18,659 nt of DNA from an uncultured archaeon (lineage in GTDB: Archaea > Asgardarchaeota > Lokiarchaeia > Sigyniarchaeales > SOKP01), in assembly GCA_964388035.1 (NCBI GenBank), contig CAYLZE010000103.1, positions 1 to 18,659 of the forward strand, written 5' to 3'. A program made the translations under genes and the position numbers. How positions within the stretch are numbered: position 1 is the first letter of the stretch; each line of letters starts with the position of its first letter. Under the pieces are notes generated by a model. It was given only the letters and a program-made list of their open reading frames with translations, was not told the origin of the DNA and made no database searches. Below, piece after piece: positions 194 through 4,923 of the stretch.

Positions 194-1660
194 TTATTCA
201 TCAATAATAATTTCTTTCTGTTGATCTATCTTCATTTTTTTTTCTCTTTCTTTTATGATATTTGCAACTTCATTGAAATCTTTTTCACACGTGAAGAATA
301 ATGGGATCCAAAAACATATTGATATAATTCCAAAAATCAAGGTTGACCATAATAGAGCCATAGAAAATGAATCTGTAGCGGTGACTATTATTCCTCCCAG
401 AAATGCACCAAGAGCCCTACCAAATGTATCAACAAAAGAAGCAACAGCAACCATTGTGCCTCTATGTTCTGGAAGATTAACATCAATTAATGAAGAATAC
501 CAATTCGGAGCAATACCAAAACTAAAAGCTAATCCTACTCCTAATAATAGCGAAAAAATGACCCAAAAAATCCAAAATTCTGCTCCCTTCGTTGCAAACT
601 CACCAAAGAAAAAAGTCTGTTTAGTTACATTTGGTGCAAATATAAAGGCTATAACTAAAAAGGGAATATTAACAATTCCACATATTGTTGCTACTTTTAC
701 TCGTCCTGATAAATCTCCTCGCTGAACCCTCTTATCTCCCCAATGTGCAAATCCAAATTGTCCTATTATAAGAGCTAATGGAATAACGATTAACAGCATC
801 ACAATTATTGATTTTAATCCGAGAGGATCACCAAAAGATATTCCCATTTCTAAATTTATGTAAGGAAAAATAAATGCCACTAATAATCCCGAGGCAACCA
901 CATCGAAAAGATTTAAAATCAAGAATAGGTTAGATCGTCGGGTAAATACATATTTTAAGTCCGAAATTTTAATCTTATAAGAATACTGATATTTCTCTTC
1001 TTTGATATGAAAATCTTGAACTCCTCTTTGCGGTTCAACCGTAAAAAAAATATTAAAAAAGCTCAAAATAATTACAATAATTCCTAAATATAAAAATGGA
1101 TATCTCCACGTGTGAACTAAATCGGAATAATTTAAAATAATATAATTGATATTATCAGAAATACCTGCTGCTTCAATCTCCTCATAAGGTATAGTATTAA
1201 ACGAAAGTGCAATGCTCCCGGCAATTAAAGAAGCAATTGTCGATATTAAGGACCAAAATGCAAAAGCTTTTGAACGAGCCTTTGAGGTGACGATGTCTGC
1301 TAAATAGGAAATCGAAAGTGGAGCAGTCACTCCCGTGGCAATTGCTGCAACCATTCGAGCGAGTACTAATTGCCACATTTCTGTGATAAATAAGTGCAAT
1401 ACGGCTGTAACTCCCCATAAAAATCCCGCTATTATTAATAAATTTTTTCTCGGAATGATATCTGAAATATATCCGAATGAAAGAATGGCTGCACCATGTA
1501 AGATGGTATAGACAGCTATAATAATTCCGATAACATCAAAATAAATTCTAAAATCCGCCGCAATCAAAACCTCATTGGAAAGAATGAGGGTAGAATCCAT
1601 CATCAGAATTAATATTAATGATAAAAAAAGGATTAATGAGATTAGTTCTTTCTTCTTCAT
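194..1660 (-). CDS. Major facilitator superfamily (MFS) transporter, possibly Spinster-like
   Basis: 488 aa with about 12 hydrophobic segments. Has MFS motif A-like FGYISDIIPRK after TM2, LARMVAAIATG in TM4, YLADIVTSKARSKAF, WRYPF, a second-half WGDKR repeat and IDVNLPEHRGT. Substrate cannot be determined. Confidence 0.9.
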   Translation of the reverse strand: MKKKELISLILFLSLILILMMDSTLILSNEVLIAADFRIYFDVIGIIIAVYTILHGAAILSFGYISDIIPRKNLLIIAGFLWGVTAVLHLFITEMWQLVLARMVAAIATGVTAPLSISYLADIVTSKARSKAFAFWSLISTIASLIAGSIALSFNTIPYEEIEAAGISDNINYIILNYSDLVHTWRYPFLYLGIIVIILSFFNIFFTVEPQRGVQDFHIKEEKYQYSYKIKISDLKYVFTRRSNLFLILNLFDVVASGLLVAFIFPYINLEMGISFGDPLGLKSIIVMLLIVIPLALIIGQFGFAHWGDKRVQRGDLSGRVKVATICGIVNIPFLVIAFIFAPNVTKQTFFFGEFATKGAEFWIFWVIFSLLLGVGLAFSFGIAPNWYSSLIDVNLPEHRGTMVAVASFVDTFGRALGAFLGGIIVTATDSFSMALLWSTLIFGIISICFWIPLFFTCEKDFNEVANIIKEREKKMKIDQQKEIIIDE

Positions 1661-1683
1661 ATTTTTAAATTAGAATGCATCAT

Positions 1684-1690
1684 AAAAAAA
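1684..1690 (-). terminator. Possible archaeal oligo-T terminator after the GTPase gene
   Basis: T7 run on the minus strand about 20 nt downstream of the GTPase stop. Weak evidence in AT-rich DNA. Confidence 0.2.
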
Positions 1691-1709
1691 TAATTTAGAA
1701 TGGGATGGA

Positions 1710-3506
1710 TCAATCAAGCGTTTTAAGAATATTTTCAATTTCTACTATTTGTGAAGTAATTTTCTCTTCCAATAATTCAATTTTTTCAAGTTTTTCTTTT
1801 ACATCTTTTGCACTAATTTCACCGGTCAATTCTTGCATTTCAATTTCTAAACTCATTTTAGAAATATTTGCTTTTTTAATTTTTAAATCTAGCAAGGTTT
1901 TTTCCAAGTCCTTTCTCTGTACTCCTTCAGTTGTTTCTTCCTTAGACTTTTCTTCTTTTTTTTCATCCCTTGTCTCAGATACTGGGGACTTTATTTCCTC
2001 TTTACCTTCGCTAATTATAGTTTCCATTGGTTTAGGCTTTTCGACAGGTTTTTGGGGCTTGATTTCAGGGGTAGACTCTACATTTTTCACGTGACCAAAA
2101 GCTGATGTTTTTAGTTTTGTTTTAGCATCTTTAGGGACATGTACCACTTCTTTTGGACGTTCCTTTATTTTGAATTCCTCGGGATTTACTTTTATAGGAA
2201 TTTGTATTTCTTCTTCTTGTTTTTTCTCTATACGAGTATCACCTGAACCAGTAGATCTTGCCTTTTCGGCTTCATTTGCAGGAGGTTCAATTTTTATTGC
2301 TTCTGGTTTTTTTAAAGTGAGTGATGGTAATGGTTTAGCTTTAGGTTTGGGTGCATTTAATTTGGGTAAGATAGTTTTTTCAGTTATATCTGTTTTTTCT
2401 AGTTCTTTACTTGGAATTTTGCCTTCCTCCTTAGCTAATTCTTCCCCTTTTCCCTTTTTACTAGCGGTTTCCACCGTTTTTCTAATTTTCTGAGATAATT
2501 CGTAAAATTCTTGACTATAAGAGTCATCTCCCAGTTCAAGGCACAAATCACTAATTTTTTCATAGATTTCTGAGGCATCCAGTAATCGATTTTCCTCCAA
2601 AGCTTTTTCTGCTTCTTTCGTTAACTTATCACGGTCCATTAGGGGTTTTAATAAAGGAGAAACTTCAGCACTCATATCCAAGATATCAGCAATTATTTGA
2701 ATCATTTTATCTCTGTTCCCTGCTTCTGTTGCGATCATTTTATATGCTTTTAATCCAATAATCTTTTCTATTTGATCGGGCTTTAAAGCCTCTTCTAAAT
2801 CTTGTTTATTTCCGATCACTGCAGCATGTGCATTAGGGGCTTGTTCTTTTATTAATTCCAAAAAAAATTTGCTTTTTTCAACGTTTTCAAGAGTAGAATC
2901 CGTTATTAATAAGACCGCATCGCTACCTTTAATGAAATTATTCCATAAATAACTAAATTGCTCTTGCCCTGCGAAATCCCAAAGATGGAAGTGGAGCTTG
3001 CCGATCTTAATCGTCGCGATATCTCCCGTAATGGTGGGAATATGCTTCATGGGAATTTCTTCCGCTTTGATTAATTTAGTTATCGTAGTTTTTCCTACAC
3101 CGGAAAATCCCACGAGAGAAATTTTAGGTCTCATATTTCTATGGATGGCATCTATTGTAGGATCAAACATTTCAAAAGTAGAAGCATCGTGCTCGACTTG
3201 AAGGATATCTTCAAATAAATTCAAGAAATCTTTCTTGCAACGAAGTAATTCTTTCTTAATGGCTTCTTGACTATCTGTTAGACCCGTTATGAAAATAAAC
3301 ATTAATCCCAAATCTCTTTCAGTCGCAAATGCGACCCTATACTTATAATAATCATAAATATCTAAATTTTTACCCCCTCTACCAAAAGCTTCTTTTCTTA
3401 GATCTCTTAATAAATTATCAAAAACTTCTGGACTTAATGCTTTTCCAAAATGCCTATAGTACAAACATTCCTCATTCTTATAAATATATACTTGACGTAA
3501 AATAAT
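1710..3506 (-). CDS. Multidomain Arf-like small GTPase: N-terminal longin-like domain, G domain, helical (TPR/MIT-like) segment, K/E/P-rich linker, C-terminal coiled-coil hairpin
   Basis: G1 GFSGVGKT (nt 3110-3087), Arf-like G2 HIPTITG, G3 WDFAGQ followed by FSYLWNNFIKGSDAVLLITDS, G4 NKQDL, G5-like MIAT. The N-terminal ~120 aa show a beta-beta-alpha-beta-beta-beta-alpha-alpha pattern. The ORF track starts at TTG 3464, but the frame is open to 3515 and adds ILRQVYIYKNEECL. Start placed tentatively at ATT 3506 (or 3503), behind AAGGTGA. Confidence 0.88.
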   Translation of the reverse strand: MILRQVYIYKNEECLYYRHFGKALSPEVFDNLLRDLRKEAFGRGGKNLDIYDYYKYRVAFATERDLGLMFIFITGLTDSQEAIKKELLRCKKDFLNLFEDILQVEHDASTFEMFDPTIDAIHRNMRPKISLVGFSGVGKTTITKLIKAEEIPMKHIPTITGDIATIKIGKLHFHLWDFAGQEQFSYLWNNFIKGSDAVLLITDSTLENVEKSKFFLELIKEQAPNAHAAVIGNKQDLEEALKPDQIEKIIGLKAYKMIATEAGNRDKMIQIIADILDMSAEVSPLLKPLMDRDKLTKEAEKALEENRLLDASEIYEKISDLCLELGDDSYSQEFYELSQKIRKTVETASKKGKGEELAKEEGKIPSKELEKTDITEKTILPKLNAPKPKAKPLPSLTLKKPEAIKIEPPANEAEKARSTGSGDTRIEKKQEEEIQIPIKVNPEEFKIKERPKEVVHVPKDAKTKLKTSAFGHVKNVESTPEIKPQKPVEKPKPMETIISEGKEEIKSPVSETRDEKKEEKSKEETTEGVQRKDLEKTLLDLKIKKANISKMSLEIEMQELTGEISAKDVKEKLEKIELLEEKITSQIVEIENILKTLD

Positions 3507-3510
3507 AAAT

Positions 3511-3517
3511 TCACCTT
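3511..3517 (-). promoter_or_regulatory. Shine-Dalgarno site (AAGGTGA) for the GTPase gene
   Basis: Plus strand tcacctt reads AAGGTGA on the minus strand, matching the 16S anti-SD core (UCACCU). It lies in the short gap after the roadblock-like gene, 4 and 7 nt before in-frame ATT codons. Confidence 0.6.
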
Positions 3518-3533
3518 AATGTAATGAAATAAT

Positions 3534-4028
3534 TTATTTCGACACGAATTTTATTAATTCTTTGATTATATCATATTTTTGATCGTTAAATACCGCATCA
3601 TTCTTCAAAGTAGACTCGATTTGTGAAATTTCCTTCGAAAAGTTAAAGAGAGAGAATTTATTCATTTCTGCTTCTTTTGCTTTTTCGTTTATTATTTTTA
3701 AAGATTGATCTGCTTTTTTTGAAAATTCTGCCAAATTGATGTTTATGGCTACTTTAGAAATTAATATGAAATTCTCTCTAAAAGTAAAAACAAAATGATT
3801 ACGTTGGAATTCCAAAATAAATGAAATAATCTGTTGATTTTTTATTTCTGTTTCAATATTATTGCGATTAGTAATAAATTCGAGTAGATTCTGAGGAAGA
3901 ACTGTATTTGCTACAAATTCCTCGATATTTGATCCTAAAATAATACCGTAATTATTAGTTAATGCGCAATTAGAATTCAATTCCTTTTCTAATTGAGATA
4001 TAATTCCCTTATAATCTTCATCCTTCAT
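3534..4028 (-). CDS. Roadblock/LC7 (MglB/LAMTOR-like) domain protein with C-terminal helical extension (tentative)
   Basis: 164 aa. Pattern: helix (DYKGIISQLEKEL), beta-hairpin (CALTNNYGIILGSN), helix, three strands (IISFILEF, HFVFTF, FILISKV), then NINL plus helix. This matches the roadblock/profilin-like topology. It lies directly upstream of a small GTPase. Confidence 0.6.
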   Translation of the reverse strand: MKDEDYKGIISQLEKELNSNCALTNNYGIILGSNIEEFVANTVLPQNLLEFITNRNNIETEIKNQQIISFILEFQRNHFVFTFRENFILISKVAININLAEFSKKADQSLKIINEKAKEAEMNKFSLFNFSKEISQIESTLKNDAVFNDQKYDIIKELIKFVSK

Positions 4029-4137: not shown

Positions 4138-4923
4138 TTGAAAAAATATAAAATTCATTTTATTGAAAAAGAATCAGATGTCTCGATTATATCAGAATCA
4201 AAAAGGGCAATCGAACGTGCTAGATCATCTTTTTTTCATCATCGTACTATTTTGGAAAAATATGTTGCTAAAAGTAAACTATTTCTTGAATCTCTTAATC
4301 CTCTAAACACTAAATCAGATTTAGAAATTATAGATTTAATGATTCGAGTTTCTCAACAATGTCATGTTGGTCCGATGGCAACTGTAGCGGGAGCTTTAGC
4401 AGATTTAATGGTTGCGAATATGATGAAAAAAGATAAAAATTACATGCCACCAAGAGTTGCACTGGTAGAAAATGGAGGGGAAATTGCGATAAATTCAGTG
4501 GAAGATGTCAAAATTGGGCTCTATGCGGGAGAAAATGTTTTGAATATTAAAGTAGGATTTCTAATAAAGAAATCTGATAATCCAATGGGTATTGGAACAA
4601 GTTCCGCAACTATTGGACATGCACTAAGTTTTGGAGAAGCGGATGCAGTGACTATTTTTGCGGATAATGCTACTTTAGCTGATGGTGCCGCTACTTATGT
4701 AGCAAACTTGGTAAAAGGTGATGATGTTGAACTATCAATACAAAAGGGATTGGATGCTGTGGATGATATATCTAATCTTAAAGGGGCTTTTATATCGCGA
4801 GATAATAAGGTTGGTATTGTGGGAAAAATACCTGAAATGTTTAGAATAAAAGATGACATAAAATATTTTTTAAAAGGAAAGATAGAAGACTTATTATCCT
4901 CTAATGGTGAAATAATTAAGTAA
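4138..4923 (+). CDS. UPF0280 family protein (ApbE-like superfamily, archaeal type)
   Basis: 261 aa, TTG start. Motifs VGPMATVAGALAD, VENGGEIA and GIGTSSATIGHALSFGEADAVTIFADNATLADGAATYVAN are typical of UPF0280/COG2122. Confidence 0.88.
   Translation: MKKYKIHFIEKESDVSIISESKRAIERARSSFFHHRTILEKYVAKSKLFLESLNPLNTKSDLEIIDLMIRVSQQCHVGPMATVAGALADLMVANMMKKDKNYMPPRVALVENGGEIAINSVEDVKIGLYAGENVLNIKVGFLIKKSDNPMGIGTSSATIGHALSFGEADAVTIFADNATLADGAATYVANLVKGDDVELSIQKGLDAVDDISNLKGAFISRDNKVGIVGKIPEMFRIKDDIKYFLKGKIEDLLSSNGEIIK

Follow-up and report, generated by a model that had tools for sequence, protein, structure and literature searches.

The subject of this report is a three-gene locus in contig CAYLZE010000103.1, from the genome of an uncultured archaeon of the Lokiarchaeia (5.47 Mb in 211 contigs; G000 in our genome labels). 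The window analyzed is the whole contig of 18,659 nt. Its minus strand carries three co-oriented genes, encoding a 164-residue protein (4028..3534), a small GTPase (open frame 3515..1710), and a 488-residue transporter of the major facilitator superfamily (MFS; 1660..194). An initial annotation had read these as a roadblock protein, an Arf-like GTPase with an N-terminal longin domain, and an MFS transporter, and had proposed that together they form a transporter-coupled switch resembling SLC38A9 and Rag-Ragulator. The comparisons described below upheld each of the domain calls and failed to support the transporter coupling. We conclude that the roadblock and GTPase genes form a module of two genes, one that is old within the Lokiarchaeia and near single copy and that is a variant of known roadblock-GTPase systems. 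Such a module, with the MFS gene outside its core, is the best overall explanation of the locus and one in which we place reasonable confidence.

Domain composition of the encoded proteins

The 164-residue protein was modelled with AlphaFold2 (predicted local distance difference test, pLDDT, 85.6). In the model the secondary structure elements follow the roadblock order, with a central helix and a five-stranded sheet whose one face is covered by the N- and C-terminal helices. The roadblock core spans about residues 1−125, and an extra C-terminal helix (131−163, lower model confidence) ends in a conserved K-Y-x-I-I-K-x-L motif. The model matched MglB (Z 12.9, root mean square deviation (rmsd) 2.9, 119 residues aligned) and MK-D1 Roadblock3 (Z 12.9, rmsd 2.7, 114 aligned), with GAF domains ranking below the roadblocks (Z up to 10.8); Foldseek gave a roadblock match with E 6e-6 and also matched LAMTOR subunits. 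A profile of 42 family sequences matched the PDB roadblocks 7yh1 (E 8e-4) and 9jue (E 6e-3), and its next-best matches within the source genome were Pfam roadblocks. A Pfam scan of the single sequence gave no match, and there was no Arg among the conserved columns of the family. Taken together, the predicted structure and the profile matches confirm a roadblock fold, of a divergent kind.

The GTPase begins with a longin domain. Its model (pLDDT 77−93 per block for residues 1−120) has the longin element order, a sheet without an N-terminal helix and two C-terminal helices, and residues 1−123 matched the longin of Sec22 (Z 14.4, rmsd 2.9, 123 aligned), followed by those of Vamp7 (Z 13.8) and SRX (Z 12.0). 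In GAP (GTPase-activating protein) longins of the FLCN/NPRL2/SMCR8 type the arginine finger lies in the loop after strand 4. We rejected this type for the present longin, in which the 41 orthologues have no conserved Arg after strand 4 and no GP motif between strands 1 and 2; that motif and a conserved arginine finger mark the FLCN-type GAP longins (PMC12290439).

Behind the longin lies a G domain with the motifs GFSGVGKTT (G1), Thr157 (switch I), WDFAGQ with Gln180 (G3), and NKQD (G4). Because these motifs are intact, and invariant in the 41 orthologues, the GTPase is probably active. The same orthologues have no conserved Arg in switch I, and the switch regions are of low confidence in the model. 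Pfam assigned the domain to Arf (E 1.9e-21, vs 3.3e-6 for Gtr1_RagA), the 60 best matches in a PDB profile search were all of the Arf/Arl type, and the fold comparison was also closest to Arf/Arl. Arl1 and Arf1 align without gaps from the switch I Thr to G3, giving an interswitch of Arf length, and GerdArfR1 (8oun) scores like the eukaryotic Arfs. An Arf-type N-terminal amphipathic helix was not found; the N-terminus is the longin, whose last helix (107−123) precedes strand 1. Two other identities were tried and rejected. For a Rag/Gtr identity, the Gtr1_RagA match (E 3e-6) is far below that to Arf (E 2e-21), and what lies behind the G domain is helices and no roadblock; Rag-like genes of the source and related genomes score 1e-21 to 1e-26 against Gtr1_RagA. 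For an MglA identity, the switch I Arg is not conserved and the best matches are Arf/Arl. Close relatives of the GTPase are recorded mostly as Promethearchaeota/Lokiarchaeia.

The C-terminal part of the GTPase consists of three segments (Table 1). The first has modelled helices at 286−303, 307−323, and 327−344, with G325-D326-D327 invariant, and is also found in tail-less paralogues of the GTPase. The linker that follows (20% Lys, 18% Glu, 10% Pro) varies in length between orthologues, and the open frame ranges from 532 to 782 aa across 42 of them. The terminal segment, a predicted helical hairpin, was detected in 66 of 68 complete loci and is single copy in the source genome; a Pfam scan of it gave no family above the cut-off and only weak coiled-coil matches.

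Translation of the GTPase probably starts at AUU. Downstream of the motif GGTGA (3515−3511) are ATT codons at 3506 and 3503; the second of these is where orthologues begin, with M/I-L-R-Q-V. Among 80 close relatives, 79 could be scored for the codon at the Met position of x-L-R, which was ATT in 51, ATA in 19, ATC in 4, ATG in 4, and ACG in 1; GGTG was present at most 22 nt upstream of it in 72 of the 79. Several more distant orthologues have ATG at that position. In several relatives GGTGA brings a stop (TGA) into the reading frame, which rules out a start upstream of it. The TTG at 3464 chosen by an ORF finder was rejected; it would remove the first longin strand, with the invariant L2 and R3. 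Starts of this kind look common in the source genome, where 119 long frames have GGTGA and lack ATG, GTG, or TTG at the right spacing: 66 of them have an in-frame ATH codon, as compared with 23 and 16 for the two other reading frames. Gene callers would truncate genes with such starts. A literature search on non-AUG starts after GGTGA yielded nothing specific.

Table 1 Features of the roadblock-GTPase-MFS locus, in window coordinates
Feature	Position	Strand	Basis
Roadblock-fold protein (predicted), stand-alone, 164 aa	3534..4028	−	AlphaFold2 model, fold matches, profile matches
Shine-Dalgarno-like GGTGA (3515−3511) and probable non-AUG start (ATT 3503, or 3506)	3501..3515	−	Codon comparison, relatives
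Longin domain, GTPase N-terminus, residues 1−123	3135..3503	−	Model and fold matches
Arf-like small GTPase domain, about residues 125−275	2679..3131	−	Pfam, PDB profile, invariant motifs
Three-helix segment behind G domain, residues 286−344	2472..2648	−	Model helices
Low-complexity linker, 182 aa	1923..2468	−	Composition, orthologue lengths
Conserved C-terminal helical hairpin (predicted), about 65 aa	1710..1922	−	Conservation; hairpin read from sequence pattern
GTPase-MFS gap, 49 nt, T7 run at 1690−1684	1661..1709	−	Sequence
MFS transporter, 488 aa, spinster-like, variable neighbor	194..1660	−	Pfam, PDB profile, synteny

Linkage of the roadblock and GTPase genes

The roadblock gene was present in 124 of 161 Lokiarchaeia genomes and in 38 of the 40 high-quality ones, with a single match in 120. 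Gene positions were compared for 128 of 129 roadblock matches (one weak match with stops was dropped), 68 of 69 MFS matches (a second fragment was dropped), and 130 of the 150 GTPase matches listed (20 short paralogues were dropped); there were 182 further GTPase matches beyond those listed. Among the GTPase matches listed, the GTPase gene lay within 500 nt downstream of the roadblock gene in 112 of the 124 genomes. The remaining 12 comprised 5 with an adjacent but partial or gapped GTPase, 1 cut by contig ends, and 6 in which the genes are split. The roadblock gene is directly upstream of the GTPase gene in 117 of 123 informative genomes on this count, which, like the other genome counts here, is descriptive, since kin are not independent. 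In the window the gap between them is 27−30 nt, as set by the ATT codons at 3506 and 3503.

The pair also extends beyond the family of the source genome. Eleven genomes of two other families keep it, with mostly different flanks. In 19 loci from 10 further genomes (nine of distant families and one of the own family without the pair), a homologue of 169−178 aa was directly upstream of the GTPase gene in 4, and in the same 10 genomes it was one gene away and divergent in 2. These proteins appear to be homologues of the roadblock family by profile-profile comparison (probability 78%, E 1.8e-5). The adjacency in 117 of 123 genomes and the divergent pairs in distant families together make a functional link between the two genes quite likely. 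The initial annotation had placed more trust in this link than in the one to the transporter, and the adjacency and the confirmed folds bear it out.

Several observations weigh against this interpretation. The pair is split in six genomes (G078, G083, G087, G096, G097, and G152) in which both genes are apparently intact; the splits arise where genes for other GTPases and giant surface proteins have been inserted, or where relocation has left a 72-aa 5′ remnant (G152). Gene order in the main family is conserved anyway: the gene at 4138−4923 of the window, which is divergent from the roadblock gene and matches NCBIfam PRK04334 (presumably UPF0280), is retained at 75 of the 80 related loci, a frequency equal to that of the roadblock gene. 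The adjacency in the main family is thus no better than that of this neighbor, and the evidential weight rests on the distant genomes. Long-tailed relatives of the GTPase without a roadblock neighbor exist at seven of the 19 loci from the further genomes (L140, L145, L146, L148, L149, L153, and L157). Finally, no fusion of the roadblock family to the GTPase was found among 8000 longer candidates, which is weak evidence, or among 44 representative matches.

In a different explanation the two genes are merely co-regulated or syntenic, the roadblock protein scaffolds other partners, and the GTPase is run in cis by its own longin in the manner of SRX and SR-beta. SRX, one of the longin matches noted above (Z 12.0), engages the Arf-family SR-beta. 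Besides the six split genomes and the high background synteny, this explanation has in its favor that the tail-less paralogues keep the longin-G-hairpin core without a roadblock neighbor, and that some roadblock and longin proteins act outside GTPase regulation (PMC10933270). Against it, adjacency survives where the flanking genes change, the gap is only tens of bases with a conserved ribosome-binding motif, and both genes are near single copy and co-distributed. We consider it unlikely.

The tail of the GTPase bears on another possibility. No roadblock gene was present in 20 loci of the shorter, tail-less paralogues, two of which had no upstream sequence, and in the paired loci conservation extends to the extra roadblock helix as well as to the terminal hairpin. 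The roadblock protein might accordingly be a structural subunit or tether, clamped on the longin or on the terminal hairpin through pairing with its extra helix, and leave the nucleotide cycle untouched. Tailed GTPases without a roadblock neighbor speak against such a clamp, as does the docking of roadblock dimers typically on G domains (PMC10933270); we judge it improbable. The reading we prefer remains the two-gene module in which the roadblock protein may act on the GTPase.

A search for the roadblock family at E 1e-9 did not find it in 191 genomes outside two families; because the same search also missed the divergent homologue in G004, absence from those genomes is not shown. Two candidates for a roadblock-GTPase fusion were rejected: P0048 (597 aa) has a roadblock at its C-terminus but is otherwise unrelated, and P0036 belongs to the repeat proteins. 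A separate 695-aa protein (L096:5823−7907 in G087, similar in L099 and L100) fuses a longin, a degenerate Arf-like domain with an altered G3, a helical segment, a roadblock-like domain, and a Rab-like GTPase. Its gene is part of an insertion between the roadblock and GTPase genes that also comprises giant LamG/DUF2341 surface-protein genes and a gene for a coiled-coil protein. We did not count it as support, because its roadblock appears to be of the canonical sort and might go with the Rab half.

Other arrangements were seen around the GTPase family. The long GTPase gene is tandemly duplicated at L104 and L105 (G078 and G096), where it is separated from the roadblock gene. In 4 of the 20 tail-less loci (L130:4597−6609 on contig C2 of G000, and L126, L127, and L129) a co-oriented Rag-like GTPase gene directly precedes the paralogue, a possible Rag/longin-Arf pairing. 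Many tail-less paralogues of genera g11 and g12 (L114−L125, L128) are embedded singly, on the opposite strand, in clusters of large surface-protein-like genes. The distant-family GTPase loci L139, L141, L142, L145, L149, L152, and L154 have genes that open with a G-x-x-I-x-x-W-D-like motif; these are longin/DENN-like by eye and gave no confident family in Pfam.

The MFS gene and its neighborhood

The third protein matched Pfam MFS_1 with E 1e-33 (117 bits, cut-off 33.4), and a crude hydrophobicity scan found 11 hydrophobic segments, indicating a multi-pass protein. Its proton-coupling residues Asp22 and Arg102 are invariant. The best PDB profile match was 6E8J (E 7e-13, positions 11−220), which is HnSpns (PMC10243590), with NorA almost level (E 3e-12). 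The likeness to the spinster-type transporters (HnSpns, SPNS1/2) runs from transmembrane segment (TM) 1 to the central loop and includes the TM1 Asp and the TM4 Arg. The TM1 Asp of HnSpns is followed by an Arg (R42) that the present protein lacks, and NorA scores nearly as well.

The initial annotation had linked the MFS protein to the switch and had made conservation of the three-gene neighborhood a test of its own proposal. The neighborhood proved not to be conserved. An MFS orthologue (E < 1e-50) was found in 68 of the 161 genomes. Among the 112 genomes bearing the pair, it was adjacent in 15 (14 by coordinates plus G063, locus L088), elsewhere in 39, and not found in 58; an MFS gene on another contig can reflect fragmentation. 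Three single-contig genomes have the MFS homologue 0.36, 0.70, and 2.5 Mb from the pair, and 15 MFS loci from genomes with the gene on another contig had unrelated neighbors (tRNA methyltransferase, acyl-CoA synthetase, ceramidase-like, and PAP2 genes). In five genomes of 98−100% completeness the pair is present, and the MFS matches are all distant and include no orthologue. In 66 informative named loci, drawn from the same collection and hence not independent, the gene next to the GTPase was MFS in 12 (3 of them broken), a PHP phosphatase in 20, and an aspartokinase in 34. In several relatives the MFS gene is decaying, as seen from remnants, frameshifts, and pseudogenes, and in G089 an IS605-type transposase gene lies between it and the GTPase gene. 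Within the source genome, 8 of 78 small-GTPase matches are within 2 kb of one of the 122 MFS genes, and random placement gave 6.2 ± 2.4; the proximity is at chance level.

These results bear directly on a transporter-coupled switch, in which the MFS protein would report its substrate occupancy to the roadblock/longin-GTPase, as SLC38A9 does to Rag-Ragulator. Some of the evidence is favorable to it. Where MFS directly follows GTPase in the fetched loci, the genes are co-oriented with gaps of 23−107 nt, and the downstream position is common to four genera and therefore not recent. The adjacent MFS copies and the relocated copies of genus g12 fall in a single region of the tree, and this position may therefore be the original one in the subgroup concerned. 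On the other side stand the adjacency in only 15 of 112 genomes, the near-complete pair genomes in which no orthologue was found, the broken copies and the transposase gene, the metabolic genes around MFS elsewhere, and the chance-level proximity. The protein itself has short termini (TM1 begins near residue 9, and about 30 residues lie behind the last helix), and examination of both revealed no SLC38A9-like cytoplasmic signaling extension, whereas SLC38A9 signals through its N-terminal domain (PMC9994763). We regard a transporter-coupled switch as highly improbable. A restricted form, in which MFS in the three-gene subgroup is co-transcribed with the switch and signals to it, having evolved independently of SLC38A9-Rag-Ragulator and being dispensable elsewhere, seems equally remote. 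Very probably the MFS protein is an ordinary spinster-like passenger, whose gene occupies the position downstream of the pair in part of a single family and was relocated or lost elsewhere.

The junction between the two genes was described correctly in the initial annotation, as were the co-orientation of the genes, the 27−30-nt gap, and the Shine-Dalgarno motif. The GTPase-MFS gap is 49 nt (1661−1709), with a run of seven T on the coding strand (T7, 1690−1684), and no GGTGA was found in it ahead of the MFS start. The run is a possible archaeal terminator. In the source genome, T7 occurs within 50 nt of the stop codon at 22 of 680 tightly coupled junctions, 298 of 1618 convergent ends, and 388 of 1790 other co-oriented ends (3% vs 18−22%), which is only suggestive that the run is typical of uncoupled gene ends; the comparison is biased because tight junctions hold little non-coding sequence. 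The run is not retained in most other loci with MFS adjoining GTPase.

At L082, L084, and L087, distant homologues of MFS have ceramidase-like, PAP2, metallophosphoesterase, and acyl-CoA synthetase genes as neighbors, a hint that the substrate may be lipid-derived. Neither the PHP phosphatase gene nor the aspartokinase gene seen next in relatives was found in the source assembly. The contig stops 193 nt past the MFS gene, and contig C38 of the same genome has at its end the small GTPase that is next in line in relatives, which suggests an assembly gap.

Proposed function and related systems

Roadblock and longin dimers serve as platforms for small GTPases (PMC10933270, PMC13408092). MglB is a GAP that remains bound through its C-terminal helix and promotes exchange (PMC10933270, PMC13408092). 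In the module proposed here, a roadblock homodimer, or the roadblock protein together with the longin of the GTPase, would form a platform for the switch regions and, by binding them, exert an allosteric effect on the nucleotide cycle. The extra C-terminal roadblock helix would hold the complex, as the MglB helix does, and the switch would be anchored to a partner by the linker and terminal hairpin. A conserved Arg is missing from both switch I and the roadblock protein, which makes a GAP of the classical arginine-finger type unlikely. From gene order and fold we infer that the roadblock protein may bind the GTPase; that it directly regulates it has, in our estimate, about an even chance.

The module resembles the MglA-MglB systems of Myxococcus and Thermus and the Asgard MglA/MglB-like pairs, which have been modelled (PMC13408092), in that a free-standing roadblock gene adjoins a small GTPase. 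MglB leads the fold matches, and the extra C-terminal helix is as in M. xanthus MglB (PMC13408092). The GTPase differs in being Arf-like, with a longin and a long tail and without the conserved switch I Arg, which is the intrinsic finger of MglA according to Tran et al. (PMC10933270). Longin-Arf-like fusions have been catalogued in Klinger et al. 2016 (per PMC4917890), in the MK-D1 set (PMC10933270), and as AArfs with longin (PMC11914678). The lokiarchaeal fusions likewise have the longin N-terminal to an Arf-like G domain; a stand-alone roadblock neighbor, a long linker, and a terminal hairpin are not mentioned in the available text of these sources.

A conserved Asgard roadblock-Rab-DENN operon is known (bioRxiv 10.1101/2020.10.19.343400), and the pairing of roadblock and GTPase is therefore not without precedent. 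The two systems share a conserved pairing of a roadblock gene with a small GTPase gene and differ in that the operon has a Rab-like GTPase and DENN, and the present locus an Arf-like longin fusion; no DENN match was found among the neighbor genes scanned. With SLC38A9-Rag-Ragulator the locus shares the match of the roadblock fold to LAMTOR subunits and the neighboring GTPase and transporter genes. It differs in its non-Rag architecture, its MFS transporter (SLC38A9 is an APC/LeuT-fold protein), and the lack of a conserved genetic link. No literature was found that links 'Asgard', 'small GTPase', 'transporter', and 'SLC38A9' jointly. Nor did we find a description of the roadblock and longin-Arf-like GTPase gene pair or of a transporter link; the pair may be listed in the paper of Vargova et al. 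in its journal version, in Klinger 2016, or in the bioRxiv supplements, and it is not described in the available portions of 10.1101/2024.02.28.582541 or 10.64898/2026.10.28.762692.

The GTPase genes of MK-D1 are generally not in operons with roadblock or longin genes (Tran et al., PMC10933270), and these authors noted that lokiarchaeal GTPases could not be matched to their regulators since no operons are formed (PMC10933270). Lokiarchaea have small GTPases and roadblock/longin proteins by the dozen; the source genome has 78 small-GTPase and at least 17 roadblock/longin Pfam matches. The pair is a conserved, near single-copy exception to this matching problem and a rare matched set of putative regulator and switch that is open to bench experiments. 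It offers a direct substrate-regulator candidate for Asgard roadblock/longin platforms acting as GAP, guanine nucleotide exchange factor, or scaffold on an Arf-like GTPase. Automated annotation misses it because the roadblock gene has no Pfam match and the GTPase has a non-AUG start. The negative result for the transporter removes a tempting but unsupported nutrient-sensing story.

The rest of the window (4975−18659) varies between relatives. Judging from the ORF translations, it is presumably a surface-glycan locus, with NAD-dependent epimerase-like genes, several glycosyltransferase-like genes, and genes for a methyltransferase, a flippase-like membrane protein, and an asparagine-synthetase-like protein.

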